A DNA stretch of 57,888 nucleotides. Source: an uncultured Dictyoglomota bacterium. Its GTDB lineage: Bacteria > Dictyoglomota > Dictyoglomia > Dictyoglomales > Dictyoglomaceae. The notes beneath the pieces are model-generated. The model made no database searches. It worked only from the letters and a program-made list of their open reading frames with translations, and was not told the origin of the DNA. The DNA is taken from assembly GCA_964654465.1 (NCBI GenBank), contig CAZZIO010000015.1, positions 1 to 57,888 on the forward strand, read 5' to 3'. The position numbers and the translations under genes were made by a program. Of this stretch, positions 7,156 through 47,787 are shown in pieces. The number at the start of each line of letters is the position of its first letter. The first letter of the stretch is position 1.

Positions 7156-8343
7156 CTATATCTCAAATCTTATTTTTAAAGGACCACTGTTATAAGTATC
7201 CTCTTCAACTATCACTTTTAGGATAACCTTTTTACCCCTCTCTTTAATTTTATAAGCAGTATCATAAAATTCATCAAAAGATATTTCACCAACAGTATTT
7301 GATAATGGATCAGGAAGTATTCCTTTTTGTTGAGCTATTTTATTAACCTCTGATAGAACCTCTAATAGTCTTGATTCAATCTTATCTAAACTTTCACTAC
7401 CATCAATAACTTTTAGTAATATTACCTCTCCTGTCTTATATACTAATTTATAAGGAAAAATTTGGAAATATACAATAACTGGTTCACCCTCAAATATGTT
7501 TGCTAGAGAATGTACCCTTACCAATTTTTCCTCTGTAGTTTTCATTTCCTCTAAAAGTTTTTTCCATTCCGCTTCTGGCACCCATACGTATCCTTTTTCT
7601 TCATTTCCTGCTCCTCTTTCTCTTGCTATACTTTCAATTAAAGAAAGAAGTGCTTTTGCCTCTTTTTGTATATCATCACCTGTTTTACCTCTAATAATAT
7701 AATTAAGTATCAATTCTCCTCTTTTAAATATAATTCCTTCTGTACGTAGACTGGCTATAGTAGAATTCAAAAACTGTAATTCATCAAGTAAATATTTTTT
7801 ATCTTTCTCCAAAGATTCTTTTTCCTTAGATAATGTGGCTATTTTTTTAGAGACTTCGTATATAGACCTTTGAAGCTTCTCATTTTCTTTCTTTAATCTC
7901 TCTTTTTCCATAGATAATTTATTAAGTTCTTTAAGTAATTTTTCTCTTTCCATTTCCAAAATATGAATTTTATTTTTATATTCCTCTAAATCTTTTAGAG
8001 CCTTATCTCTACCTTTCTTAACTTCTTCATACCTCTTTAAAATCTCTGTATATTCTTTTTCCTTTGACTTAATCGAATTTTCTAAAGAATATATTTGTTT
8101 CTTTAATTTTTCCATTCCAAATAAAGCTACTCGAACATTTTCCGAAATAACAGAAAGCACAACAAGAGAGAAAATCATAATTAAAATGCCAGTCAAAATA
8201 CTGATTATACGAGAAGTATATTTAGGCCTAAGGCCAAAGAGAGAAAGTTTCTTTTTCCCTGCTTTTCTACCTACATAATCTCCTGCATATGCAATCAAAC
8301 CACTTGCAAGAATCAATATAATTATTAAAAAAAATCCAGACAT
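7156..8343 (-). CDS. DUF3084 domain protein (two N-terminal TM helices plus long coiled coil)
   Basis: GLIAYAGDYVGRKAGKKKLSLFGLRPKYTS motif and heptad-rich central region. Confidence 0.82.
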   Translation of the reverse strand: MSGFFLIIILILASGLIAYAGDYVGRKAGKKKLSLFGLRPKYTSRIISILTGILIMIFSLVVLSVISENVRVALFGMEKLKKQIYSLENSIKSKEKEYTEILKRYEEVKKGRDKALKDLEEYKNKIHILEMEREKLLKELNKLSMEKERLKKENEKLQRSIYEVSKKIATLSKEKESLEKDKKYLLDELQFLNSTIASLRTEGIIFKRGELILNYIIRGKTGDDIQKEAKALLSLIESIARERGAGNEEKGYVWVPEAEWKKLLEEMKTTEEKLVRVHSLANIFEGEPVIVYFQIFPYKLVYKTGEVILLKVIDGSESLDKIESRLLEVLSEVNKIAQQKGILPDPLSNTVGEISFDEFYDTAYKIKERGKKVILKVIVEEDTYNSGPLKIRFEI

Positions 8344-9098: not shown

Positions 9099-9731
9099 TT
9101 ATCTCAAATTTTTTAAAATTCCAAATATGTTTTTATATCCTTTTCTTTGAACAATACTCAAAGTCATAAAGTATTCCTTAAGGGCAGAGAAATATCTATT
9201 TTCTCTTAAATATAAGGCACATAAAAGAGCGTGAAAAACCTCATTATCTTTATTTAATTTTAATCCTTTATCTATTAATTCTTTTGTCTTATTTAAATTA
9301 TCTTTTAAATAGTACAAATATGCAAGAAAAGCTATTACCCAATCATCGTTAGGTTTTAAATCATATAACCTTTCAAAATAAAAGATAGATTTATCATAAT
9401 CTTCTAAGAAATAATACAAAAATGCTAATTTATATAGATTGAATATACTACTATCTTCTTCCTTTATATCTTTTTTTAGGTTTTTAAGAAAGTTGGGATC
9501 AGTAGCAATAAGCAAATTATATGTATTATAAAGATTCTCTAAATCTCCTAAAGCCCCATATACTACCATAAGATTAAAAAGAACTTTAGAATTTTGAGGC
9601 TCTTTTTTTAATTGCTGTTCAAATTGAGTTTTTAAATATTTTAGATCATCAGAAGATAATGATAGAATAATAAAAAAGATAAGAAAGATTATAGATAAGT
9701 AAAAATTTTTAAGTATCTTTCTTAATATCAA
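9099..9731 (-). CDS. Exported or membrane-anchored tetratricopeptide repeat protein
   Basis: N-terminal hydrophobic stretch; TPR-like repeats (LYKLAFLYYFLEDYDKSIFYFERLYDLKPND). Confidence 0.7.
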   Translation of the reverse strand: MILRKILKNFYLSIIFLIFFIILSLSSDDLKYLKTQFEQQLKKEPQNSKVLFNLMVVYGALGDLENLYNTYNLLIATDPNFLKNLKKDIKEEDSSIFNLYKLAFLYYFLEDYDKSIFYFERLYDLKPNDDWVIAFLAYLYYLKDNLNKTKELIDKGLKLNKDNEVFHALLCALYLRENRYFSALKEYFMTLSIVQRKGYKNIFGILKNLR

Positions 9732-10662
9732 AAATTCTCAGCTCCTTTAAAATTTCAGTAGCAAGGGCTAAAGCTAATTTTCCATCCTCAAGGGTAACTT
9801 CAGGATCCGACCCCTCAAGAATACAATTCACAAAATGTTCAAGCTCTAATCTCAAAGGTTCCTCTTTCTCTAAAACTGGAGTCTCTATAGATGTTTCAAC
9901 TTGTTTTCTATTCCCATGAATTATAGATATGCTTTGTTCCATATAATCTATGCTTATTAAATCCCCATTCTTCTCATAAATATCTAATCTTCTAATCTTT
10001 TTAGGAGTTACCCTACTGGCAATCAGATTTACAAGAAGATTTCCCTCAAAAACAAGTTCTACATTTGCAAAATCTTCATAAGAAGTATAAAAAGAATAAC
10101 CATATCCTTTTATGTCTAATATTTTTCTACCCTTACCTAATACATAAAAAAGTATATCCAAATCATGAATCATAAGATCCATTACAACCCCCACATCAGT
10201 TATCCTACCGTCAAAAGGACCAGATCTTTTTATCTCCATGTAAAAAGGATCATTTATATATCTTTTTAATTCTTGAACAGCAGGATTAAATCTTTCTATA
10301 TGACCTACCTGTAAAATAAGATTTTTCCCACTGGCAATCTCTAAAAGAGTTTCCGCTTCTTTTAAAGTTTGAGTTACAGGTTTCTCTATAAAAGTATGAA
10401 TACCTCTAAGCAAAAAGTCTTTTGCTATCTGAAAATGAGTATTAGTAGGAGTAACAATACTAACAGCATCAACCCTATCAAGTAAATCTCTATAATCAGA
10501 AGTTACAAAAGGTATATTATAAATAGAAGCAATCTCTTTTGCTCTTTGTAAATTTAAATCTGCAATTCCTACAATTTCTACTTTAGGAATCTCGCTGAAA
10601 ATTCTTACATGATGTTGCCCTAAATATCCTACTCCAACAACTCCTATCTTTACCTTATTCAT
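9709..10662 (-). CDS. Gfo/Idh/MocA oxidoreductase, probable UDP-GlcNAc 3-dehydrogenase (GnnA-like)
   Basis: GVGYLGQHH, EKP, QVGHIERFNPA, DLMIHDLD; position inside the lpx cluster supports GnnA. Confidence 0.75.
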   Translation of the reverse strand: MNKVKIGVVGVGYLGQHHVRIFSEIPKVEIVGIADLNLQRAKEIASIYNIPFVTSDYRDLLDRVDAVSIVTPTNTHFQIAKDFLLRGIHTFIEKPVTQTLKEAETLLEIASGKNLILQVGHIERFNPAVQELKRYINDPFYMEIKRSGPFDGRITDVGVVMDLMIHDLDILFYVLGKGRKILDIKGYGYSFYTSYEDFANVELVFEGNLLVNLIASRVTPKKIRRLDIYEKNGDLISIDYMEQSISIIHGNRKQVETSIETPVLEKEEPLRLELEHFVNCILEGSDPEVTLEDGKLALALATEILKELRIFDIKKDT

Positions 10663-12394
10663 CTCCTATATTACTCTCCTCAAGTTGCCATTTTATTATT
10701 CTTGCATAAATTCCACCCTTCTTCAAGAGATCTTCATGAGTACCCTCTTCTACTATTTCTCCATTTTCTAATACAATTATTCTATCAGCTTTTCTTATAG
10801 TAGATAAGCGATGAGCCACAATAAAAGCAGTTTTTCCCTCCATAAGATCTTTTAAAGCTTCCTGTACATAGGCTTCTGATTCTGAATCTAATGCTGAGGT
10901 AGCTTCATCAAGAATTATTAATCTTGGCTTTAAAAGAACAACTCTTGCAATAGCAATTCTTTGTGCCTGTCCTCCCGAAATACCTACCCCACCTTCTCCA
11001 ATTACAGTATCGTATCCATTTGGTAGATTCATAATAAAATCATGAGCCCTTGCAATTTTAGCAGCCTCTATAATTTCATCTAAAGTTACATTTGGGTTTC
11101 CATAACTTATATTATCCTTTACTGTACCATAAAAAATAATAGTCTCTTGTGGAACGAAACCTATTTGAGATCTTAAAGATTTTAAACTCACTTCTTTTAT
11201 ATTGTACCCATCAATTCTTACTTCTCCTTGAGTGGGATCTATAAACCTTGGAATAATATTTACCAGAGAACTTTTTCCTGCACCACTACTTCCAACAATA
11301 GCAATTTTTTCTCCAGGATTAACTTTAAGATTTATATTCTTTAAAACCCAACTCTTTCCGTCATATGTAAAATATACATTTTTAAATTCTACAAAACCTT
11401 TTATTGGAGGTAGAACTATTGGATTTTTAACCTCTTCTACTTCTTTACCTTTATCCAAAATCTCAAAAATTCTTTCTAAAGCTGCATAGGTTTGCCTAAG
11501 TCCTGAAAACACTCTAAGAATAGTTTGAGTAGGATCCAAAGCCATACCCACATAAGTAAGAAAGGCTACAAATGATCCCATTGTTATCTCTCCTCTTGCT
11601 ATCTTTCTTGTACCTAACCAAAGGATAAAAACAAGTGCTAAAGCACTTAAAAAGCTAGCAAGAGGAATTTGAAATGCTGTAAGTCTTGCAATTTTCAAAT
11701 TTCTAAAAAAGTTTTTCTCGTTTTCTTTCTTAAATCTTTCAATTTCTTTTTCTTCTTGAGAAAAGCCTCTTACTATTCTTGCTCCTTTTATACTCTCCTG
11801 TATAAGTTTTGTTAAATCTGCTACCTTTTTTTGTACAGACATGGACCATTTTTGTATTTCCCTACCTATACCAGATATAGAAAAAACAAAAAGAGGAATA
11901 ACAATAAGAGTTGCAAGAGCAAGTTGCCAATCTGTGATGAATATTATAACAAGTACTCCTGATAAAAGGACTATAGCATAAAAAAGATCTGCTATGCCTG
12001 ATAAAAAAGAAGTTTGTATCAATTGAGTATCTTGAAGAGTACGAGCTATAAGATCACTACTTCCCCATCTATTTAAATAATCTAAAGAGAGATATTGAAT
12101 CTTCTCGAATAATTTTTCTCTTAAATCTGCTACTAATCTATGACCAATAAAAGAAAAAATATAAATCTGACCATACAAAAAAATACTTCTTGTAAAAAGA
12201 AGAAGAATAATTATAAAGGCTAATCTATTTAAAACATTTAAATCTCTAATATGAGAAAGCTGATCCAAAAGTTCTCCTAAGAATTTTGGTGCATATAATT
12301 GAGCACCATTACCAACTATAATACAGAAAAAACCTATTATAAAATAAATTGCATATGGTTTTAAAAATTCAAATAGCCTTTTCAAGTACTTCAT
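10655..12394 (-). CDS. msbA: Lipid A flippase-type ABC exporter
   Basis: Fused TMD and NBD (GSSGAGKS, ISGGQAQR, ILDEATSALD, AHRLSTI) in the lpx cluster. Confidence 0.85.
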   Translation of the reverse strand: MKYLKRLFEFLKPYAIYFIIGFFCIIVGNGAQLYAPKFLGELLDQLSHIRDLNVLNRLAFIIILLLFTRSIFLYGQIYIFSFIGHRLVADLREKLFEKIQYLSLDYLNRWGSSDLIARTLQDTQLIQTSFLSGIADLFYAIVLLSGVLVIIFITDWQLALATLIVIPLFVFSISGIGREIQKWSMSVQKKVADLTKLIQESIKGARIVRGFSQEEKEIERFKKENEKNFFRNLKIARLTAFQIPLASFLSALALVFILWLGTRKIARGEITMGSFVAFLTYVGMALDPTQTILRVFSGLRQTYAALERIFEILDKGKEVEEVKNPIVLPPIKGFVEFKNVYFTYDGKSWVLKNINLKVNPGEKIAIVGSSGAGKSSLVNIIPRFIDPTQGEVRIDGYNIKEVSLKSLRSQIGFVPQETIIFYGTVKDNISYGNPNVTLDEIIEAAKIARAHDFIMNLPNGYDTVIGEGGVGISGGQAQRIAIARVVLLKPRLIILDEATSALDSESEAYVQEALKDLMEGKTAFIVAHRLSTIRKADRIIVLENGEIVEEGTHEDLLKKGGIYARIIKWQLEESNIGDE

Positions 12395-13460
12395 GATAAA
12401 AATCCTTCCAGATCAACTCGGACGATAGATAATTCTTATTAAACTTTTCTTTTAACTCATTATGTATATTTAAGATTATCTCCCTTTCAACAATTAATCC
12501 TCTTAAAAATTCTAACACATCCTTAAACAAAAATTTACCTACTACTTCAGGTAGTATTCCAGGATATAGCTTATTGGGCAAGGCTAAATATGGATTTCTA
12601 TTTAAGTAGGCTTTTATAATAAAATCTCGTATTCTTCCCTTAAACAAATTACCAATCCCTTCAAGAGGAAGATATTCTGGTCTATGAAGAGGCAATATTA
12701 CTAACATAGGAATCTTCATATATGCAAGTTGCAAAGTATTGGTACCAGGAAGTGTAATAGCAAGAAAATAACCATTCACATCTCTCATATCCTTTAGATC
12801 TCTAAACTCCATAGGTAAATCTTTCCAAAGAGGTTGCAGTTTCTCTAATATTTTTCCCCTTTCTGATGGATTTAAAAAGGGAGAGAAAAATAAGGTGAAG
12901 TTAAGATCTGGAAAATCTTTTAAAATTTCTCTTGCTAACATGAAATAAAATGGCAAATAAAATCTCAACCCATAGGTCCTACTCCCCGGAAATAAAGCAA
13001 TTTTATTATTGTTAGAAAACCCATTATTGGGAAGAAAATCAAATCTTAAATCTCCAACTACTACTGCCTTTTTATATTTCAATACTTCAGATGCATAGAT
13101 CCTATTATAAAATCTTTCCCAATAAAAATCTTTCTCCAAGTATGCTAAAGATTTACTTTTCCACCTTTTGGCAAGAGCCAAATTAAAAAATAAATCTCCT
13201 CCTATATGGAAGATTATTGTGTTACTTTCTTTAACTTTAAAAAGCTTCCAATATTCATTTGGTAAGATTATATCTTCAAAAAATTCCCATGTTCTTACAA
13301 CTCTTTCTTCTTCTCCTGATGCAAATTGACAAGGATTTAATATTAAATAATATGACAAATTTTTACTCCAAAAAGGCTCATACTCCCTTATCCACTGTAC
13401 CAATGGATAGAGCCAGCCTGCTATTTCTCCAGGCCCATTAGCTATGAAATAAATTTTCAT
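12369..13460 (-). CDS. LpxB-related GT-B glycosyltransferase (NGPGE type)
   Basis: N-terminal ANGPGE motif; LpxB-like IALFPGSR, TLPGTNTLQLA, LALPN. Confidence 0.7.
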   Translation of the reverse strand: MKIYFIANGPGEIAGWLYPLVQWIREYEPFWSKNLSYYLILNPCQFASGEEERVVRTWEFFEDIILPNEYWKLFKVKESNTIIFHIGGDLFFNLALAKRWKSKSLAYLEKDFYWERFYNRIYASEVLKYKKAVVVGDLRFDFLPNNGFSNNNKIALFPGSRTYGLRFYLPFYFMLAREILKDFPDLNFTLFFSPFLNPSERGKILEKLQPLWKDLPMEFRDLKDMRDVNGYFLAITLPGTNTLQLAYMKIPMLVILPLHRPEYLPLEGIGNLFKGRIRDFIIKAYLNRNPYLALPNKLYPGILPEVVGKFLFKDVLEFLRGLIVEREIILNIHNELKEKFNKNYLSSELIWKDFYHEVLEKAI

Positions 13461-14545
13461 AAAAGATTTAATATAAAATCAGAAATTTTATCTAAAACCC
13501 CAGGTTTTCCAATTATTTCAGAGATTCTATCAAGATCTTTTAACATTTTTTCTCTTCTATCGCTATCTTTCAAAAAATCATCTATATCCTTAACAACCTT
13601 GTTTATATCTATATACTGCACATACTCAGGAAATATACGTTTTTCTAAAATAATATTGGGCAAAGCAATATAAGGATAATGAACAAGTCTTTTAGCAATA
13701 AAATAAGTCAATGGAGAGATCTTATAAAATACAAAAACAGGTGTCTTGAGAATGGCAGCCTCTAAAGTTACTGTACCAGAGGCTACAAGGCTTATGACAG
13801 ATGCCCTTAAGATCTTTTGGCTTTCATTTCCTGACACAACTTTCACCAAATTCTCCTTCCCTTTAATGATAGAATATAATAAATTAGAAAAATTTTGACT
13901 TGCTAAAGGAATAACAAATTTATATCCTGGCAATTTCTCAGCTATCTCTAAAAAAATAGGAGTAAGTTTTTTAATTTCCTGTACTCTACTTCCTGGGAAA
14001 AGTCCTATAAGATCATTTTTTTTGTCTATATTTGAATAAACTGAAAGATAATCTATAAGAGGATGTCCAAAAAAAACCACATTATCTCCAAATGATTTAT
14101 ATAAAGAATACTCTTGAGGAAAAGTAGCAATTATCCAATCCAAATTTGAAAGAACTTCTTTAGCTTCTTCTTTCTTTCCCCATAGCCAATATTGTGGAGC
14201 AAAATAATATACAGTTATTATACCTAAACTTTTCGCATATTTTGCTAATGGGAGGTTAAAACCTTGAGCATCAATAAATATAGCAAGATCAGGTCTTGCC
14301 TCTCTTAATAAATTTTTGGCTTCTTGCTGTATTTTTAATAACTTTGGAATATAAGGTAAAGGCTCAACAAAACCAACAGTACTATATCTTGTTAGATCCC
14401 ATCTTACATCTAAGCCTTCTTCCTTCATTCTTTCTCCGCCAAGACCAAAAAAATATATATTTTTTTGTTTTTGTTTTAGCGCATTTATAAGCTTTGATCC
14501 ATGTAAATCAGCAGAAACTTCTAATGCTGAAAAGAATATTTTCAT
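13457..14545 (-). CDS. lpxB: Lipid-A-disaccharide synthase
   Basis: EVSADLHG, IDAQGFN, YYFAPQYWLW, GHPL, LFPGSRVQE, ASGTVTLE, IALPNII. Confidence 0.92.
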   Translation of the reverse strand: MKIFFSALEVSADLHGSKLINALKQKQKNIYFFGLGGERMKEEGLDVRWDLTRYSTVGFVEPLPYIPKLLKIQQEAKNLLREARPDLAIFIDAQGFNLPLAKYAKSLGIITVYYFAPQYWLWGKKEEAKEVLSNLDWIIATFPQEYSLYKSFGDNVVFFGHPLIDYLSVYSNIDKKNDLIGLFPGSRVQEIKKLTPIFLEIAEKLPGYKFVIPLASQNFSNLLYSIIKGKENLVKVVSGNESQKILRASVISLVASGTVTLEAAILKTPVFVFYKISPLTYFIAKRLVHYPYIALPNIILEKRIFPEYVQYIDINKVVKDIDDFLKDSDRREKMLKDLDRISEIIGKPGVLDKISDFILNLL

Positions 14546-15336
14546 TCTTCATTCCTCCAAGATGCATCAGCAATTCCTCTTTTCGAGCCTTTAACAAAAT
14601 CAACCAACATTTTAGCCTCTTCATATTCTATCTTAGATATTGCCTCTAATCTTTTCTCAAAAGATAAACCTTTATCATATAATATATGAAAGAGTTTTCT
14701 AATTATTCTAATCCTATCACTCGAAAAACCATTTCTTCTTAGACCTACCACATTAATACCATATATTAGAGCCGGATTACCATCACATAAAGAAAAGGGA
14801 GGAATATCTTTAACCAACTTAGATAATGCTCCAACCATTGCATAACTACCTATCCTTACGAACTGATGAATCCCTACAAGACCACTTATAAATGCCTTGT
14901 CTCCAATTTCCACATATCCAGCAAGTTGTGTGGCATTGGCTATTATAACATCTCTTCCAATTTTAACATTGTGAGCCACATGAACATATGCCATTAAATA
15001 ACAATTATCACCTATGATTGTAGCATTACCATTACCAGATGCCCTATGAAATACACAATATTCTCTTATTGTTACATTATTTCCTATTATAAGAAAACTT
15101 TCTTCTCCTCTGAAACTCAAATCTTGAGGAATATCACCTAAAACACTTCCTGTATGTATATGACAACCACTACCTATAATGGTTCCTCTTTTAATATGAA
15201 CATTGTTTTCAATTTTTGTATAATCTCCAATTCTTACCCCATCCTCAATTACAGTAAAAGGACCAATCTCTACATTTATACCTATTTCAGCCTTACCACT
15301 GATTATAGCAGTAGGATGTATTGATACATCCTTCAT
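14542..15336 (-). CDS. lpxA: Acyl-ACP--UDP-N-acetylglucosamine acyltransferase
   Basis: IHPTAII, hexapeptide repeats, PQDL, MAYVHVAHN, IHQFVRIG, GINVVGLRR. Confidence 0.95.
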   Translation of the reverse strand: MKDVSIHPTAIISGKAEIGINVEIGPFTVIEDGVRIGDYTKIENNVHIKRGTIIGSGCHIHTGSVLGDIPQDLSFRGEESFLIIGNNVTIREYCVFHRASGNGNATIIGDNCYLMAYVHVAHNVKIGRDVIIANATQLAGYVEIGDKAFISGLVGIHQFVRIGSYAMVGALSKLVKDIPPFSLCDGNPALIYGINVVGLRRNGFSSDRIRIIRKLFHILYDKGLSFEKRLEAISKIEYEEAKMLVDFVKGSKRGIADASWRNEE

Positions 15337-15773
15337 TCTTTTCCTCCTAATGCAATAGTAATTTCTCCGTCTGCCACAATATTATCATCTACTTTACAAA
15401 TTGCATCAAACTTATATATATTCCTTACTGTTTGCTTTAGTTTTACTTCTAAAACTATTTGATCACCCGGAATTACTGGTTTTCTAAATTTAACGTTATT
15501 CACCCCTGCTAAATACGCTATATATTCTTTATCACTTTTATCTTTTCCATAGCTTAGAAATAAAAATATACCTGCAGACTGTGCCATAGCTTCAATTATT
15601 AATACTCCCGGCATAATAGGTCTTTCAGGAAAATGTCCTACAAAAAAATAGTCATTATACGTAACATTTTTTATTGCTTTTAACCATTCCCCTTCTTTAA
15701 AATCTAATACTTTATCAACAAGAAGAAAAGGGAAACGATGAGGAAGAATTTTAGTAATATCAATATTATTCAC
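15333..15773 (-). CDS. fabZ: 3-hydroxyacyl-ACP dehydratase
   Basis: LPHRFPFLLVD, GHFPERPIMPGVLIIEAMAQ. Confidence 0.96.
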   Translation of the reverse strand: MNNIDITKILPHRFPFLLVDKVLDFKEGEWLKAIKNVTYNDYFFVGHFPERPIMPGVLIIEAMAQSAGIFLFLSYGKDKSDKEYIAYLAGVNNVKFRKPVIPGDQIVLEVKLKQTVRNIYKFDAICKVDDNIVADGEITIALGGKE

Positions 15774-15777
15774 ATCA

Positions 15778-16581
15778 TCACCCCCTAAGTAGATATGACA
15801 TAGCTTTCATATGTAGCGAGTGTCCTGATCCAATAGATATAATTTTTAATTTTAATCTTTTACCTGAAAGGGATATATCACCTATTAAATCAAGAATTTT
15901 ATGCCTTACTGGCTCATCTTTGAAGCGAGGTTCATTAACATATCTACCTTCTCCCACAAGAAGTGCATTGTTAAGATCAGCACCACTTATGAGTCCTTTT
16001 TTAACAAGCTCCTCTACCTCATAATAAAACCCGAAAGTTCTTGCTGGAGCAATTTCAGTTTTATAATCTTTAAGATCTTTTAAATAAAATGTTTGCCATC
16101 TTAAAAAGGAATTAGGAAAAGAGATAGCACAAAGTACTTGAAATCTGCTTGAGGGAAAAAAGAGAATTTCAGCATTTTTAACCCTAAAAGAATATGGTTT
16201 CTCAATCGTCAATTCATCTATTAAATCATCCTGATCTTTTACTAAATCCTCAAGAATTTCTACCCAATAAAAAGCACTGCCATCTAAAATTGGCACTTCG
16301 TCTCCATCAACTTCCACATATAAGTTAGAAATTCCAAGGTAATATAATGAAGACAAAAAATGTTCAACAGTAGAAATCTTTTCGCCATCTTTTTCTAAAA
16401 CAACTCTACGTGAAGTTTCTACTACAAACTTATAATTGGCTGGAATTTTTACTTTATTCTTAATAAACAAAACACCTGTATTTTCTGGGGCAGAATGTAA
16501 ATACATTTTAGTATAACAACCAGTATGTAGGCCTTTACCTTCTACCTTGACAGATTCTTTTATTGTTCTTTGTCTAACCAA
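15778..16581 (-). CDS. lpxC: UDP-3-O-acyl-N-acetylglucosamine deacetylase
   Basis: GKGLHTG, TVEHFLS, EVPILDGSA, IAPARTFG, VRHKILDLIGD, GHSLH. Confidence 0.95.
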   Translation of the reverse strand: MVRQRTIKESVKVEGKGLHTGCYTKMYLHSAPENTGVLFIKNKVKIPANYKFVVETSRRVVLEKDGEKISTVEHFLSSLYYLGISNLYVEVDGDEVPILDGSAFYWVEILEDLVKDQDDLIDELTIEKPYSFRVKNAEILFFPSSRFQVLCAISFPNSFLRWQTFYLKDLKDYKTEIAPARTFGFYYEVEELVKKGLISGADLNNALLVGEGRYVNEPRFKDEPVRHKILDLIGDISLSGKRLKLKIISIGSGHSLHMKAMSYLLRG

Positions 16582-17566
16582 GTTTATCCCTCAACTTCTT
16601 TATTTCTTCCCAAATCTCAGGAAGTCTTCTCATAATAGCTTGTACTCTCATCTCTTCCCTATGAGGTCTGGCGGGAAATCCAGAAACTATCATGTTATCA
16701 GGTATGTCTTTAATCACACCACTCTTAGCAAGGATGGTTACGTTATTGCCTACTTTAACATGATCAGAAACACCGCTTTGACCTGCCATGATTACATTAT
16801 TTCCTAATTTACTACTTCCAGCTATACCACTCTGACTTACTATAACGCAATTCTCTCCTATTCTTACATTATGTCCTATGATTATCAATGATCCTATTTT
16901 AGTACCTTTACCTATGCGTGTTTCTCCCAAAGTGGCTCTTTCAATAACCGTGTTTCCTCCTATTTCTACTTCATCCTCTATAACCACCTTACCAATATGA
17001 GGGATTTTGTAATGCTCTTCTCCATTCCATACATATCCAAAACCATCTATTCCAATACTACATCCTGAATGAATTATAACTCTATCTCCAATATAGCAAT
17101 GGTCATAAATAGTTACTCTTGGATATATGATACAATTCTCACCTATTTCCACATTATTTCCTATTACTACTCCTGAAAATATCTTTGATCCTTTGCCAAT
17201 CTTTACATTATCTCCTATAACAGTATATGGTGCTATTCCCACATCCTCTCCTAATTGAATCCCTTTGCCCATAATAACTGTAGGATGAATATCTTTAGGA
17301 TATACCCGCCAATCAAAATACTTTAATAATTCTGCCATTGCAAGTTTAGGATTCTCAACCCTTATATGTGGCTTAGAAGAAGACCCACCATATGGAATCA
17401 CCATTGCTTTTGCCCCTGTTTTTTCAGCTACTTTTATATCATCCAAATCAAATACAAATATAAGATCATTATCTCCTGCTTTGTCCCATTCAGAGATCTT
17501 TTCTATATATACATCTTCCCCAACTAACTCTCCATTAATTATCTTTGCTATTTCACTAAGATGCAT
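16574..17566 (-). CDS. lpxD: UDP-3-O-acyl-glucosamine N-acyltransferase
   Basis: N-terminal uridine-binding domain, hexapeptide repeats, IGIDGFGY, IGHNV, GFPARP. Confidence 0.95.
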   Translation of the reverse strand: MHLSEIAKIINGELVGEDVYIEKISEWDKAGDNDLIFVFDLDDIKVAEKTGAKAMVIPYGGSSSKPHIRVENPKLAMAELLKYFDWRVYPKDIHPTVIMGKGIQLGEDVGIAPYTVIGDNVKIGKGSKIFSGVVIGNNVEIGENCIIYPRVTIYDHCYIGDRVIIHSGCSIGIDGFGYVWNGEEHYKIPHIGKVVIEDEVEIGGNTVIERATLGETRIGKGTKIGSLIIIGHNVRIGENCVIVSQSGIAGSSKLGNNVIMAGQSGVSDHVKVGNNVTILAKSGVIKDIPDNMIVSGFPARPHREEMRVQAIMRRLPEIWEEIKKLRDKLG

Positions 17567-25800: not shown

Positions 25801-26302
25801 TATTTAAAATATTTAACTTTCCCTTTCCTAAAAATAAACTATTATTATATTTTCCACTTAAGGACAGGCTTAGATTCTTTAAATCATGACCCTTTAGATT
25901 TATGCTGACTATTCTCAATGGAAAGTTTTTGATAATAAGATCTTTTCCATAGAGAGATATATCAAAATAGGGATTCTTTAAAATATTACCTGAGATCTTA
26001 ATCCTTATCAACAGATCTCCATCAATATCTAAGTTGGATAATTGATGAATTGAGGATTTAATTTTCAATATTTCAATATTTGATGAAAGGAGAGAAATGT
26101 ATCCCAATAGATTTTTAGGATCATATTTACCGCTTACCCAAACATATCCAAAATCATCAGTAAGTAATTTACCATTAATATTAAAATCTTCCGTAGTAGT
26201 TTTGTTTATACCTAATACTCCTTTTTTAACATATATCCCTGCGGATATACTAAAAAACTCTAACCTTAGCTTTTTTAAAAAAAAACTGAATTTCTCAATA
26301 AA
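22871..26302 (-). CDS. tamB: TamB/AsmA-like protein, C-terminal part (DUF490); frame open upstream of TTG 26107 to 26302
   Basis: Beta-taco-like repeats; FSSDPPLT.REILFLL motif; directly upstream of bamA; my translation shows no stop between 26302 and 26107. Confidence 0.75.
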   Translation of the reverse strand, partial: FIEKFSFFLKKLRLEFFSISAGIYVKKGVLGINKTTTEDFNINGKLLTDDFGYVWVSGKYDPKNLLGYISLLSSNIEILKIKSSIHQLSNLDIDGDLLIRIKISGNILKNPYFDISLYGKDLIIKNFPLRIVSINLKGHDLKNLSLSLSGKYNNSLFLGKGKLNILNMNGEVEGRLSFREEFSFNSLFYFKGDFSSWKLKFYTKIGSLKYKDFEIKVSNFDLNLDSSGSVDGYFLSVDKDCFLNAKIEGDFNNWKISFWGENIDFLGGKVKKLKLTMDNKFSGEFYSELDNIGSLEGNFVFSLEKGNILLENLLINKNKLGYIHGSFRDNKFNIDGQILEGSIKGYYDISGDGNIDFNDIKLLDFELSGNVLIKGNKVLFKIPKLDFYGMNIEDIKATLDLSNSKEIKDISFIGPYSLEGVGKFSFDSVNLKGEIFIYRERNEFVKLSVEIEKDNMKLNGDILGGKLAGNVNLKEKEVKIICENLDLSSLNDYLGKIDQLEIDFANEGINFSGVSKTFSIRNINLNNVVFKGTYKDLLKFQIVFDYSLVNLKIDGVFDLKGNNDFNLYINSKISLLNSSFIGKVNKDLDYINLKIDKHNVFQLKDLIANISLKEGEVFLRVYLEEAGKIEGNIDFSGNGFWAFENINLSFLKNMNIDFVSGMLSGNMEMKSFQVNNVKLNTKDVVISGFMPFDISMNIYNIQNRYLLRGTISRLSKDNGEIKGEFSLNDFTFNISLPDIFFINSLLPKGILKSGDITKGELRVSIKGNKDLQSIEGDIKWKDPIVVNYIEKKFKYVSFDMIAKNGEILLNNLNLGGDNNNLILKGKVYPNIMIKSDFSEICFCIPDMAKGYLSGDLMFYQKKDRYILSGNCIVFNTHVKYPQLNTQIPNISLPLDFDLKISFKDNVMFYENEFLYLSIKGDLAVKGNSAKPILDGKLSFNSGNINVLGNSFIVNNGYIKFPGLSFEENIWEISASTIIQGYIIYLKGYSFMGNNSFVFSSDPPLTFREILFLLVGQKNLPIAQSETWTLSSIIESIPIGVEGVISSAFGNFILNPIVSEISNIFSLDSLKVDYEIQGLLPIWKSLTLEKRIWDRLYFTLNYSLGGDRMWSGEFSYKLSNDLKFKLYTSQGKQFNFNMEYSTKF

Positions 26303-27714
26303 TCAAAATTTAAGCTTCCTTCCTCATTTTCCAAAGAAAAGATAATTTTTTCAGCAGAATAATCTCCCATTTTTCCATTCTCTATTACTCCATCAACAAA
26401 AACCTTCCATCCTTTACTAGCCTCTTTATTCCCTTTCACAACTAAAGAACCTTTTCCTTCTATATCTGGTAGGTTAAATAGCTTGGATATCTTTTCTAAT
26501 CTTATGTTTTCAGCACTTAAGTAAAACTTGCCAGAATTCTTTTCAAGTTCATAATTCATATTTCCTGATGCCTTACCAATTTCCAAATCACCAGTAAAAG
26601 AGACTAAAAGCCCAGGTATCTTAGCATCCAGATTTAAGGCTATATTATCAAATTTGATATCATAAATAGTTCCATCTTTAATATACACCTCTCCTGAAAT
26701 CCAGGGTTTATCCCATGAATTTTTAATAATTAAATTTCCTTCTCCCTTTCCCTTAAGTTTGAGGGAACTATTAAGAAACTCTTTATCTATTTTCTCTCCA
26801 TTAAGGTTCTTAAAAGATACTTGGATATCAGGATCTGGTGCTACTTTCCCACTGAAATTTACAGAAGCTTCAAACCAAACCCCATCTCCTTGTACAACTG
26901 ATATATTTTCATTATTTATTTTTACCTTCATACATACATTCTCTATTGTTCCTGGAACACCAGATATGCTTCCTTTTACCTCTTTTGTATCCATCTCTCC
27001 ACTATAACTCCATTTATCTTTGTCCCCTTTTGTATTAAACCATCCAGAAAAAGTTCCCTTTTCAACCTTAAATATATCAGGTAGAAATATAGGAGCCCAT
27101 ATTGTAGCATTAGTATTTTTAAACTCAAAAGTTAAATCTCCCGATAATTTGGAAAAATTATAATATCCATAGGCTTTTATGTTTTGTCCATCAGCCAAGA
27201 TTGTAGCTACATCATAATTTATGACTTGATTTTTATAAGATAAATCTCCATTTACCTTATTTATCTCTATATCTTTCTTAAGCTTCAAATCCCTGATTAC
27301 AAAAATTCCATCTTTTATTTTTCCCTTAATTTCAATATTGATATTTTGAGAAGATGTTCCAGATTTTCCAATACCAGGAATTTCAGGAAACTTCCATTCC
27401 CCTTTTTCATCATGTATTATTATTATTTTGGGTTTTATAAATTCTAAAGTAATAGGAGAAAGCTTTATAGCATCTCCCACTGAAAGGCTTACATTGGTAA
27501 ATAACGCAAAATTTCCAAGCTCTAACTTTGCAATCTGTATCTTATTCGGAAAAATATACCTTACATCTTCTACCTTAAAAGATTCTCCAAAACTTCTATT
27601 CAATACATAAACTACAACATACTTTACCCATAATGGTGATGTTATGTATATAATTCCTATTAATATAAAAACTATACTAAAGACTAAGATCAGAAACTTT
27701 TTTACCTTCTTCAT
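26275..27714 (-). CDS. TamB/AsmA-like protein, N-terminal part
   Basis: N-terminal TM anchor; AsmA-like KPKIIIIHDEKGEWKF; stop falls at the end of a T9 tract. Confidence 0.7.
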   Translation of the reverse strand: MKKVKKFLILVFSIVFILIGIIYITSPLWVKYVVVYVLNRSFGESFKVEDVRYIFPNKIQIAKLELGNFALFTNVSLSVGDAIKLSPITLEFIKPKIIIIHDEKGEWKFPEIPGIGKSGTSSQNINIEIKGKIKDGIFVIRDLKLKKDIEINKVNGDLSYKNQVINYDVATILADGQNIKAYGYYNFSKLSGDLTFEFKNTNATIWAPIFLPDIFKVEKGTFSGWFNTKGDKDKWSYSGEMDTKEVKGSISGVPGTIENVCMKVKINNENISVVQGDGVWFEASVNFSGKVAPDPDIQVSFKNLNGEKIDKEFLNSSLKLKGKGEGNLIIKNSWDKPWISGEVYIKDGTIYDIKFDNIALNLDAKIPGLLVSFTGDLEIGKASGNMNYELEKNSGKFYLSAENIRLEKISKLFNLPDIEGKGSLVVKGNKEASKGWKVFVDGVIENGKMGDYSAEKIIFSLENEEGSLNFDLLRNSVFF

Positions 27715-45750: not shown

Positions 45751-47021
45751 AATTTTTTAATCCTTTCTTTTATTATTTTCTCCTTTCCTTGCTCAGTTGG
45801 ATTATAAAAAACCTCATTCACATCATATGGTAAATATCTTTGAATTACAAAATGTTCCGGAAAATCATGAGGGTACAAATAATCAGGAGAACTTCCCCAT
45901 AAATGCTTTGGAATCTCTGACACTCCTTTCTCCTGTATGTAATTCATGGCTTTTTCTATGGAAGATATCACACTATTACTCTTTGGAGCGGTCGCAAGGT
46001 ATATGGTAGCTTCAGCTAAAGGAATTCTTGCCTCTGGCATACCTACCACATCCACAGCATAATATGCAGACTGAGCAATCAATAAGGCTAAAGGATCTGC
46101 CATTCCTATATCTTCAGCAGCATGGATTATAAGTCTTCGAGCAATAAATCGCGGATCTTCTCCTGCAAGAAGCATCTTAGCCAGATAATATAAAGCAGCA
46201 TCGGGATCAGAACCTCTTATGCTTTTAATAAATGCTGATATAGTGTGATAATGCTCGTCCCCTTTTTGATCATATCTTATCACCCTTTTCCCTATTACCT
46301 CTCTTACCACAGATGCATCAATAAGGACTTTTCCATCTTCATCAGCTTTTGCAACAAAGGAAGCAATTTCTAAGGTATTAAGAGCAATCCTTGCATCACC
46401 ATTGGCAAACCTAACTATTTCATCAACAGCATCTTGAGAAATTACAATGTTTTTTCCTCCTAAACCTCTTTCTCTATCTTTTATTGCTCTGTCAATTAAT
46501 ATCCTTAGTTTATCATCCGTTAAGGGCTTCAGTTCTATAATCCTACAACGAGAAAGAAGGGTTGTATTTAAAGCAAAAAGAGGGTTTTCAGTAGTAGCAC
46601 CTATAAGAATTATTATACCTTTTTCTACAAAGGGTAGTAGCACATCTTGTTGTAATTTATTGAAATGATGTATTTCATCAAGAAATAAAACAGTTTTCTT
46701 TTTATAAAGTTCAATATTTCTTTGAGCTTTTTGAAGGGCTTCTTTAAGATCTTGTACTCCAATTATAGCAGCATTTAATTCTATAAAATCAGCATTTATC
46801 TCCTTAGCTAACAGAATAGAAAGGGTAGTCTTTCCAGATCCTGGGGGGCCAAAGATAATAAGGGAAGGTAAATAACCTTTTTGAACTGTCCTTCTTAAAA
46901 AAGATCCTTCACCTATAATCTCCTCTGCACCAAGAAATTCATCAAAACTTCTTGGCCTCATTCTGTATGAAAGAGGTTGAAAACTATTATCCTCTTTAAA
47001 TAGCTTTTCTTGCCTATCCAT
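45726..47021 (-). CDS. rarA: Replication-associated recombination protein A (MgsA)
   Basis: PLSYRMRP, GPPGSGKT, DEIH, ATTENP, SAFIKSIRGSDPD, EDIGMADP. Confidence 0.95.
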   Translation of the reverse strand: MDRQEKLFKEDNSFQPLSYRMRPRSFDEFLGAEEIIGEGSFLRRTVQKGYLPSLIIFGPPGSGKTTLSILLAKEINADFIELNAAIIGVQDLKEALQKAQRNIELYKKKTVLFLDEIHHFNKLQQDVLLPFVEKGIIILIGATTENPLFALNTTLLSRCRIIELKPLTDDKLRILIDRAIKDRERGLGGKNIVISQDAVDEIVRFANGDARIALNTLEIASFVAKADEDGKVLIDASVVREVIGKRVIRYDQKGDEHYHTISAFIKSIRGSDPDAALYYLAKMLLAGEDPRFIARRLIIHAAEDIGMADPLALLIAQSAYYAVDVVGMPEARIPLAEATIYLATAPKSNSVISSIEKAMNYIQEKGVSEIPKHLWGSSPDYLYPHDFPEHFVIQRYLPYDVNEVFYNPTEQGKEKIIKERIKKLWKERYGR

Positions 47022-47787
47022 CTAAGAAGTGCCTAAAAACCACCTGAAAATTTTTTATTATATCTCCCTTACTTTGCATTATATAAATCCCATTATCAAA
47101 AGCGTATACACCATCTTTTAAAGAGAAGACATTTATTTTTTTACTTTTCATAAATCTTCTTTCTAATAGAGAACATATATTTTCAATTATATTTCTTTCT
47201 ATTTTTAATGTTGTATCAATAAAAAATATTGTAATCTTTGGTTTTAATACTTCTCTTCTTCTTAAAAATTCCCAAATTTCTCTTAGTCTTATATTATTAG
47301 GAGGACTTGTTTTACACTCCACATACAATAAGTTATTCTCTAATATGGAGAGGATATCAAAGTCTCCTCCACCTTTAATCTCCTTTATTTTTATTCCCCA
47401 AATCGTGGGCATATAAAATTCTCTTTTAAATATCTCTGATATGAACCACTCTAAAGTTTCTCCAAAATTATCCAAATAAAAGTAAGAAAACAAATACTGA
47501 TCTTCTTTTAAACTTTCTATAATATGAGCTTTCAATAAAAAATTCCATTGTTCTTCTACTTCATCCTTTTTCCAGCGAGAAAAAAGAGTTTCACAATCAA
47601 TATAATCATCTTTTCTAAATAGTAAAAGATCACCTAAAAAGCGTCTAAATCTATAATTAAAAAGTCTTTGATAATATTCGTCTAAAAACTCCCCTCCTTT
47701 AGGTACTATCACCCTCTCAATAGGACATTCTTCTATTATCTCATATCCTCTACGCCAAAGTGCTCTTCTTACCTCTTCAGAATTCAT
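47014..47787 (-). CDS. Hypothetical protein with a PD-(D/E)XK nuclease-like C-terminal domain
   Basis: E..E(GETLEWF)...DFDIL...YVECKT motif arrangement. Confidence 0.6.
   Translation of the reverse strand: MNSEEVRRALWRRGYEIIEECPIERVIVPKGGEFLDEYYQRLFNYRFRRFLGDLLLFRKDDYIDCETLFSRWKKDEVEEQWNFLLKAHIIESLKEDQYLFSYFYLDNFGETLEWFISEIFKREFYMPTIWGIKIKEIKGGGDFDILSILENNLLYVECKTSPPNNIRLREIWEFLRRREVLKPKITIFFIDTTLKIERNIIENICSLLERRFMKSKKINVFSLKDGVYAFDNGIYIMQSKGDIIKNFQVVFRHFLDG

Follow-up and report, generated by a model that had tools for sequence, protein, structure and literature searches.

How is lipopolysaccharide (LPS) assembled in bacteria whose lipid A pathway consists of LpxA, LpxC, LpxD and LpxB only? 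We know of nothing that links core or O-antigen to the lipid A of such four-enzyme bacteria. The question is raised here by ORF363, a gene on the minus strand of a 57,888-nucleotide stretch of DNA (the window), which is contig C15 of the 1.91-Mb, 99.97% complete genome of an uncultured Dictyoglomaceae bacterium. A sequence-only reading of the window had described ORF363 as an uncharacterised LpxB paralogue between lpxB and msbA, and had proposed that it adds the first sugar other than Kdo (3-deoxy-d-manno-octulosonate) to the lipid A disaccharide, generates lipid X or partners LpxB. We find that ORF363 is neither LpxB nor a member of the related family TIGR03492; it belongs to a third, unmodelled LpxB-related family of GT-B fold, here called the NGPGE family after an N-terminal motif. 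We propose, with a confidence that stops somewhat short of even, that ORF363 adds the first sugar to the lipid A disaccharide and so starts a Kdo-free core, doing the job of WaaA without kinship to WaaA.

The link to lipid A is drawn from the position of the gene in an lpx operon, from the presence of LpxC in all 29 carriers surveyed and from natural fusions of the family domain to LpxB and to LmtA-like methyltransferases. A simple nucleotide-sugar donor is suggested by fusions to a UDPGP-type pyrophosphorylase and to RfaE domain II, and by RfaE, PGM/PMM and NTP-transferase neighbours. The Kdo-free setting is drawn from the enzymes that the host genome lacks and from the complementary distributions of the family and WaaA in two phyla.

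Searches of the host genome gave no WaaA (PF04413), LpxK, LpxH (TIGR01854), LpxI_C (PF06230) or KdsB-type cytidylyltransferase (PF02348). Because there is no KdsB-type gene, the donor of ORF363 cannot be CMP-Kdo. The host gene set matches the four-enzyme lipid A pathway (LpxA, C, D and B) of Dictyoglomi and cyanobacteria set out by Opiyo et al. (2010). The family gene is single-copy in all 11 genomes of the host phylum. Similar proteins in cyanobacteria, which the sequence-only reading had mentioned, were borne out by many loci from Prochlorococcus, Synechococcus, Cyanobium and other genera. From the phylum to which a Chroococcopsis genome belongs (the cyanobacterial phylum) we sampled 121 genomes evenly, each at least 90% complete; the family was found in 74, WaaA in 44 and LpxC in 118, distributed as follows.

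Family only: 74 genomes (73 with LpxC)
WaaA only: 44 genomes (all with LpxC, all of 1.6-2.3 Mb)
Both family and WaaA: 0 genomes
Neither family nor WaaA: 3 genomes

Exactly one of the two, the family (73) or WaaA (44), is present in 117 of the 118 LpxC-positive genomes. We infer that the WaaA-only group represents non-photosynthetic lineages of the phylum. Of 73 genomes sampled from the phylum that includes the Armatimonadota genome G008, 66 carried the family and none had WaaA over cut-off (64 and none of 71 when the unpublished genomes G170 and G174 are set aside). This sample includes the genomes of loci L008, L010, L011, L018 and L020, titled 'bacterium', Bacillota, Fervidifonticultor and Sysuimicrobiota, which are not to be taken as separate phyla. 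The only PF04413 signal in the 73 genomes (G218:C44:123914-124042, 20.6 bits, below cut-off) lies inside the family gene and probably reflects generic GT-B similarity.

The step proposed for ORF363 is that of WaaA/KdtA (GT30; PF04413), namely the transfer that puts the first sugar on the disaccharide, which takes place at the cytoplasmic face and before MsbA. Both proteins have a GT-B fold and their distributions are complementary in the two phyla. They differ in that a Pfam scan of ORF363 gave no match to PF04413 (Glycos_transf_N), and one NGPGE clade coexists with WaaA (see below).

The features of the locus are these.

12369..13460, minus strand: ORF363, GT-B glycosyltransferase of the unnamed LpxB-related (NGPGE) family; ATG start, 363 amino acids
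13457..14545, minus strand: canonical lpxB; PF02684 274.1 bits, TIGR00215 242.9 bits (cut-off 190.25)
10655..12394, minus strand: msbA-like ABC exporter with fused transmembrane and nucleotide-binding domains (ABC_membrane and ABC_tran); TIGR02203 (MsbA_lipidA) 487.7 bits, below the cut-off of 602
9709..10662, minus strand: Gfo/Idh/MocA oxidoreductase resembling UDP-N-acetylglucosamine (UDP-GlcNAc) 3-dehydrogenase; NF040723 266.5 bits, below the cut-off of 450
14542..17566, minus strand: lpxA, fabZ, lpxC and lpxD, the upstream operon genes, named from their translations and the published Dictyoglomus gene order
13457..13460, minus strand: ATGA shared by the lpxB stop and the ORF363 start (translational coupling)
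12369..12394, minus strand: 26-nucleotide overlap of the ORF363 3' end with the start of the msbA-like gene

The overlaps measure 4 and 26 nucleotides, and ORF363 shares a message with LpxB and the MsbA-like gene. The LpxB of the window scores 131.6 bits against E. coli LpxB (5w8s), and the lpx gene order is that given for Dictyoglomus by Brumm et al. (2016) and Opiyo et al. (2010); in Brumm et al. (2016) the Dictyoglomus gene appears as 'hypothetical, related to LpxB'. Beyond the lpxA-fabZ-lpxC-lpxD open reading frames (ORFs), Pfam identifies two Skp/OmpH genes, a POTRA protein, Omp85/BamA and TamB upstream. Downstream of the msbA-like gene follow the oxidoreductase, a tetratricopeptide repeat (TPR) protein, an ABC ATPase that we read, from its sequence, as LptB-like, and a DUF3084 protein. 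The gene is intact and conserved, being single-copy throughout the host phylum with 11 columns invariant among 83 aligned members, and we reject a pseudogene or chance ORF on these grounds.

The last gene of the lpx-msbA-lptB-like string encodes the DUF3084 protein (7156-8343, minus strand; 395 amino acids with a long coiled-coil), which is kept at the same place in L005 and L006. Two other ORFs on the minus strand matched no Pfam family at the thresholds used: 26275-27714 (479 amino acids), just upstream of TamB, and 47014-47787 (257 amino acids).

The relationship of ORF363 to LpxB is real but remote. Its match to PF02684 (24.5 bits, cut-off 22.6) covers residues 150-255 only (model positions 184-286 of 374), its score against the NCBIfam lpxB model TIGR00215 (18.3 bits) lies below the equivalog cut-off of 190.25, and BLASTP gives 23% identity to the neighbouring LpxB over 186 amino acids. 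TIGR03492 (cut-off 219.2) gave no match to ORF363 at E ≤ 0.01, and Pfam and NCBIfam scans of ORF363 gave none to the metallophosphoesterase TIGR01854 or to LpxI_C (PF06230). A first homologue search returned 23 proteins: 14 at 50-90% identity, from Dictyoglomaceae or Dictyoglomus wherever named, and nine at 25-30% identity (315-448 amino acids), none of which reaches the LpxB or TIGR03492 cut-offs. When a 16-member family profile (A1) was run against 1.84 billion cluster representatives, 5637 proteins matched at E ≤ 1e-3, of which 1685 reached E ≤ 1e-10 and 461 reached E ≤ 1e-30. LpxB proper is surely present among the weaker matches; the best 150 matches are nearly all full-length (∼ 360-470 amino acids). 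Among 17 distinct members scanned with NCBIfam, one exceeded the lpxB cut-off, by way of a separate N-terminal LpxB half. TIGR03492 scores of sampled members reach at most 52.5 bits, and 74.0 bits in the LpxB fusion P0034, against the cut-off of 219.2.

A second alignment and profile (A2) comprises 83 rows, ORF363 among them. ORF363 scores 345.8 bits against it (positions 2-402), a partly circular value, since its own sequence went into the alignment; for independent members the scores run from 260 to 520 bits. Profile A2 aligns with the LpxB of the window over 248 columns in the C-terminal two-thirds (hhalign probability 99.3%, E 3e-20) and with the TIGR03492 protein of the host genome (96.9%, E 1.8e-10). 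Against PDB sequences it gave 85 bits for E. coli LpxB (5w8n) and 35 bits for the next chain, with UDP-GlcNAc 2-epimerase chains at ≤ 24 bits; the same search with the single ORF363 sequence found nothing relevant, LpxB being reached by the profile only. In a tree of 69 rows (quick IQ-TREE search, SH-aLRT support only, several long branches flagged) canonical LpxB (20 rows, 99%), a TIGR03492-type pair (99%) and the NGPGE family (47 rows including ORF363, 97%) form separate clades, and an Armatimonadota-type clade is sister to the Dictyoglomaceae proteins (86% support in the family tree). The NGPGE family is an ancient sister family, a paralogue, of LpxB. In the ESM Atlas, the neighbouring clusters bear GT19/LpxB names and come from Cyanobacteriota and Synergistota, and public labels of members vary between hypothetical protein, glycosyltransferase and lipid-A-disaccharide synthase. 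The orthologue in D. thermophilum is WP_012548451.1.

The host genome carries three LpxB-superfamily genes, namely lpxB, ORF363 and a TIGR03492 member (C62:14124-15323, equivalent to L003 1492-2712; 429.5 bits) that adjoins a LacI-type regulator and a glycoside hydrolase. TIGR03492 ('lipid-A-disaccharide synthase-related protein', an NCBIfam hypothetical equivalog) resembles the NGPGE family in being an uncharacterised, distantly homologous LpxB-like GT-B family of cyanobacteria and of the host; it differs in that the host gene lies outside the lpx operon and on a separate branch of the tree from ORF363. In L006, from a related Dictyoglomaceae-type genome, a TIGR03492-like paralogue (11743-12825) sits inside the LPS operon, between the oxidoreductase and TPR genes, and both uncharacterised LpxB relatives are therefore tied to the cluster in this lineage.

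The motifs of ORF363 were compared with the LpxB active-site set of Table 3 in Bohl et al. (2018): E15, S17, D98, P198-G199-S200-R201, T277 and E281. All lie on the minus strand.

13425..13439: NGPGE, residues 8-12; G11 and E12 invariant (83/83)
13308..13334: PCQFASGEE, residues 43-51, a family-specific motif of the N-terminal domain, absent from LpxB; C44 in 80/83, E51 in 83/83
13194..13202: GGD, residues 87-89; position 89 is D in 78/83 and E in 5/83
12978..12989: PGSR, residues 158-161, the nucleotide-diphosphate loop, equivalent in computed alignments to LpxB P198-G199-S200-R201
12729..12746: GTNTLQ, residues 239-244; T240 equivalent in computed alignments to LpxB T277
12573..12587: LALPN, residues 292-296; N296, invariant, equivalent in computed alignments to LpxB N316

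The motifs (IANGPGE, residues 6-12; LFPGSR, 156-161; PGTNTL, 238-243; LALPN, 292-296) and the overlaps with both neighbours are as the sequence-only reading had described them. Eleven columns are invariant across the 83 members and all are present in ORF363: G11, E12, P19, E51, G87, G159, S160, G239, G268, N296 and E305. In the PGSR loop G159 and S160 are invariant, and position 161 is R in 71 members, K in 10 and H in two. By motif reading as opposed to computed alignment, E12 would correspond to LpxB E15 and A14 to S17; position 14 is S in 37 of the 83 relatives. D89 is the likely counterpart of the catalytic base D98 judging from the neighbouring sequence, with the register shifted by one residue relative to the LpxB IDA motif. 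Position 244 is dimorphic in A2 (E in 48/83, Q in 31/83, Q in all Dictyoglomaceae rows), which could reflect different nucleotide donors. N-terminal domain residues that are invariant in LpxB (G36, G37, M40, G44, P117 and G160-H161 in the LpxB of the window) are not kept in ORF363; family-specific motifs, NGPGE, PCQ(F/Y)ASGxE and VGDL, replace those of LpxB.

ORF363 resembles LpxB (CAZy GT19; PF02684, TIGR00215; 5W8N/5W8S/5W8X) in its GT-B fold, its homologous C-terminal two-thirds, the PGSR, GT.T and LPN motifs, the N-terminal GE, the mid-domain Asp and its location in a lipid A operon. It differs in having NGPGE and PCQ(F/Y)ASGxE where LpxB has GGxRM, PQxW and GHP, in scoring below the equivalog cut-off, in its separate clade, in the Q at the E281 position and in coexisting with a canonical LpxB. 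Counterparts of most LpxB catalytic residues are kept in ORF363, those in the N-terminal part by motif reading. We read these sequences as a nucleotide half that would be LpxB-like and an acceptor half that appears rebuilt.

An AlphaFold2 model of ORF363, computed with A2, has two Rossmann-like halves in a GT-B fold (predicted local distance difference test 95.8, predicted template modelling score 0.92). The best whole-chain matches in VIA-align are MurG (3s2u; Z 21.3, root-mean-square deviation 3.7, 298 residues aligned) and UDP-GlcNAc 2-epimerases (Z ∼ 20). LpxB (5w8n) is third in Foldseek (E 1.6e-9, root-mean-square deviation 23) and is not among the best 50 VIA-align rows; WaaA (2xci) is among the Foldseek matches. 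MurG (GT28) and the 2-epimerases, although the best structural matches, give weak sequence signals, and what they share with ORF363 is the generic GT-B fold. According to Bohl et al. (2018), LpxB of E. coli forms a C-terminally swapped dimer, and we take its low structural rank as an effect of this domain-swapped crystal dimer and as no evidence on function. The model supports a predicted GT-B fold and nothing further.

The swapped dimer also bears on the suggestion that ORF363 partners LpxB, as a heterodimer subunit or as a scaffold that couples LpxB to MsbA without a reaction of its own. Translational coupling to both neighbours and the existence of a natural LpxB-family fusion are in line with such a structural or regulatory role; the invariance of catalytic-type residues across 83 members and the fact that the gene is not next to lpxB outside Dictyoglomaceae speak against it, and we regard it as quite improbable.

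Related loci were collected by a pattern scan with one genome per species, which returned at least 600 stretches, of which at least 564 encode a relative; the best 80 were kept as loci. By title these come from Dictyoglomaceae, many cyanobacteria, Sericytochromatia, Armatimonadota, Gemmatimonadota, Alpha- and Deltaproteobacteria, Spirochaetota, Verrucomicrobiia, Eremiobacterota-type bacteria (Baltobacteraceae) and others. With the proteins of the window as queries, the gene immediately downstream of the family gene, on its strand, proved msbA-like in 10 of the 80, which represent several lineages (L005, L006, L012, L017, L018, L019, L020, L041, L056 and L084), and lpxB is adjacent only in the two Dictyoglomaceae-type loci. 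A Pfam scan of neighbours (134 ORFs from 26 loci, ten very long ORFs left out) found GT2 in 10 loci, Wzy_C ligase and PMT_2 in three each, and SIS_2, PGM/PMM and RfaE-type genes in two each (RfaE domain I 347.5 bits, RfaE domain II 174 bits). In two cyanobacterial loci a sugar-1-phosphate nucleotidyltransferase is directly upstream of the family gene. The L018 cluster reads family gene-msbA-GT2-WaaL, and its GT2 is 31% identical over 294 amino acids to a GT2 on host contig C62, which matches full-length the GT2 adjoining the family gene and msbA in other phyla. Among 83 family-bearing loci, 14 have a GT2 of this L018/host type no more than 6.4 kb from the family gene. The host also has Wzy_C/O-antigen-ligase-type genes, one of them together with its GT2 of this type and a GT4 at C62:2480-5518 (L104).

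The natural fusions have these partners.

P0034: family domain with a true LpxB
P0080, P0119, P0219 and P0224: family domain with a GT2 of the L018/host type
P0111: family domain with RfaE domain II (heptose-1-phosphate adenylyltransferase)
P0238: family domain with a UDPGP-type UDP-sugar pyrophosphorylase (249.8 bits)
P0139 and P0264: family domain with PEMT/ICMT/LmtA-like methyltransferases

No fused form of at least 791 amino acids came out of a search aimed at such proteins. Since the family is fused to sugar-activating enzymes, a soluble nucleotide-sugar donor is suggested, unlike the lipid-linked donor of LpxB. Together, the neighbours (msbA, GT2, ligase) and the fusions point to a step after LpxB and before flipping.

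How far the family is tied to lipid A, and to the absence of Kdo, was surveyed in 29 diverse, hand-picked carriers.

LpxC: 29/29 carriers
Canonical LpxB, whole or in fragments: 24/29 carriers
WaaA: 8/29 carriers
LpxK over cut-off: 7/29 carriers
LpxI over cut-off: 10/29 carriers
LpxH-like, below cut-off: 5/29 carriers, four of them without LpxI

The eight WaaA-positive carriers all belong to one clade, from Proteobacteria and Gemmatimonadota, and the distribution needs two changes on the family tree. The sequence-only reading had named routine co-occurrence with lpxH/I and waaA as a refuting condition. The family does occur together with LpxI or an LpxH-like gene in about half of the carriers, and with WaaA only in eight of the 29, all in that single clade.

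These counts also bear on the generation of lipid X, in which ORF363 would stand in for LpxH or LpxI and make the LpxB acceptor by hydrolysis or phosphorolysis of UDP-2,3-diacylglucosamine. The host and all sampled oxygenic-type cyanobacterial carriers are without LpxH and LpxI, the gene lies directly after lpxB and is fused to LpxB in one protein, and cyanobacterial lipid A is reported to be phosphate-free (Kehr & Dittmann 2015). However, 14 of the 29 carriers have LpxI (10) or an LpxH-like gene (four more), including the Armatimonadota-type clade nearest to Dictyoglomaceae, and the lipid-X role is therefore disfavoured; fusion partners and neighbours are, moreover, sugar-activation and glycosyl-transfer genes. 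We consider this the least probable of the explanations weighed here.

A further possibility is that the family serves a separate glycolipid or polysaccharide pathway, one with an MsbA-type exporter in common and no more than a loose connection to lipid A. The Proteobacteria/Gemmatimonadota clade keeps the gene despite a full or near-full Raetz pathway with WaaA, its gene adjoins GT2 genes and an ABC exporter, and the related TIGR03492 family also matches in Deinococcus, a member of the control set. Set against this are LpxC in all 29 carriers and in 73 of the 74 carriers of the cyanobacterial phylum, membership of the lpx operon in the window, and the fusions to LpxB and LmtA-like proteins. 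Such a pathway seems improbable to us.

Canonical LpxB was absent from five of the 29 carriers when searched with two family models; four of the five gave no match at all, the fifth matched only with the family gene, and a Rhodobacterales LpxB query also found none in four of them. The main rival to our proposal is a second lipid A disaccharide synthase, that is, an LpxB isozyme with another substrate preference (for example of the 2,3-diamino-2,3-dideoxyglucose, or GlcN3N, type) or an enzyme that adds a third acylated sugar. In its favour, LpxB is the closest solved relative by sequence (85 versus 35 bits), the diphosphate-binding loop and other LpxB residues are kept, and these five carriers have LpxC without canonical LpxB. 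The UDP-GlcNAc-3-dehydrogenase-like gene in the operon and three strong DegT-type aminotransferases in the host genome are consistent with it too, and host lipid A may use 3-amino sugars of this kind. Conversely, the motifs of the N-terminal (acceptor) domain of LpxB are replaced, the UDP-sugar pyrophosphorylase and heptose adenylyltransferase fusions point to soluble donors, canonical LpxB is kept alongside in 24 of the 29 carriers and in the host, and the GT2, WaaL and msbA context resembles core assembly. We judge a second synthase unlikely, while taking it seriously.

In four carriers, at loci L017, L025, L033 and L059 (genomes G010, G015, G016 and G022) and including the isolate Anianabacter salinae, LpxC is present and neither canonical LpxB nor LpxI was detected. 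Common to all four is a trio made up of a GT21-like GT2, a conserved 250-280-amino-acid ORF and the family gene; the middle ORF matches no Pfam or NCBIfam family. The lipid A route of these carriers may be unusual.

Our preferred explanation, the start of a Kdo-free core by ORF363, can be put as follows. ORF363 would be a catalytically competent, inverting-type GT-B glycosyltransferase whose acceptor, at the cytoplasmic face, is the tetra-acyl glucosamine disaccharide made by LpxB. With an ordinary nucleotide-sugar as donor, it would glycosylate the 6' or 4' hydroxyl of the distal glucosamine and thereby begin the core region in an organism without Kdo, WaaA and LpxK. LpxB recognises the 6-hydroxyl of a diacylated glucosamine, and a duplicate with its nucleotide half preserved and the other half rebuilt could glycosylate the equivalent hydroxyl of the distal glucosamine. 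The 6' hydroxyl is where WaaA normally puts Kdo; the free 4' hydroxyl, the phosphorylation site of LpxK, is the other candidate. LpxB would be followed by ORF363, then by a GT2 that adds the next sugar, by flipping through the MsbA-like exporter and by a WaaL-like ligase that adds polysaccharide. The analysis shows the gene, its predicted fold, the family and its separation from LpxB, the conserved residues, the genomic distributions and the neighbours and fusions; from these we infer acceptor, donor, modified position and order of steps. The order agrees with the operon layout, with neighbours and fusions, and with the distribution.

Several points weigh against this explanation. Eight of the 29 carriers have WaaA and seven have LpxK over cut-off, all in one clade, so the family is not confined to Kdo-free bacteria. 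In the five LpxC carriers without canonical LpxB, synthesis of the disaccharide may fall to the family. The gene adjoins lpxB in Dictyoglomaceae only. Q244 takes the place of the ribose-binding Glu (E281) of LpxB, and A14 that of S17. Since MurG and UDP-GlcNAc 2-epimerases outrank LpxB structurally, the fold is silent on the substrate, and since the genomes counted are kin, the exclusivity of family and WaaA may stem from one or two deep splits instead of many independent events and is no statistical proof. No functional study of the NGPGE family, and no biochemical or genetic data on any member, came out of the literature searches. Among the proposals of the sequence-only reading, the transfer of a first non-Kdo sugar to the lipid A disaccharide fits the evidence best (WaaA exclusivity, neighbours, fusions).

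The NGPGE family forms a conserved branch of its own in the LpxB superfamily, and its reaction is probably a different one. Its recognition would correct the varied database names. For the family as a whole, we hold it possible, though rather less than an even prospect, that it is the core-to-lipid-A enzyme of Kdo-free LPS, an LpxB duplicate that replaces WaaA in cyanobacteria, Dictyoglomota, Armatimonadota and relatives. How LPS is assembled in bacteria with LpxA, LpxC, LpxD and LpxB only has been an open question since the four-enzyme pathway of Opiyo et al. (2010), and the NGPGE family is a concrete candidate for the step, being WaaA-exclusive within a phylum and wired to msbA, GT2 and ligase genes. 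If the proposal is true, there would be a second, ancient route to LPS core initiation, with LpxB, its paralogue, a GT2, MsbA and WaaL as the minimal module. The candidate is relevant to how the outer membrane evolved and to the low endotoxicity of cyanobacterial LPS.

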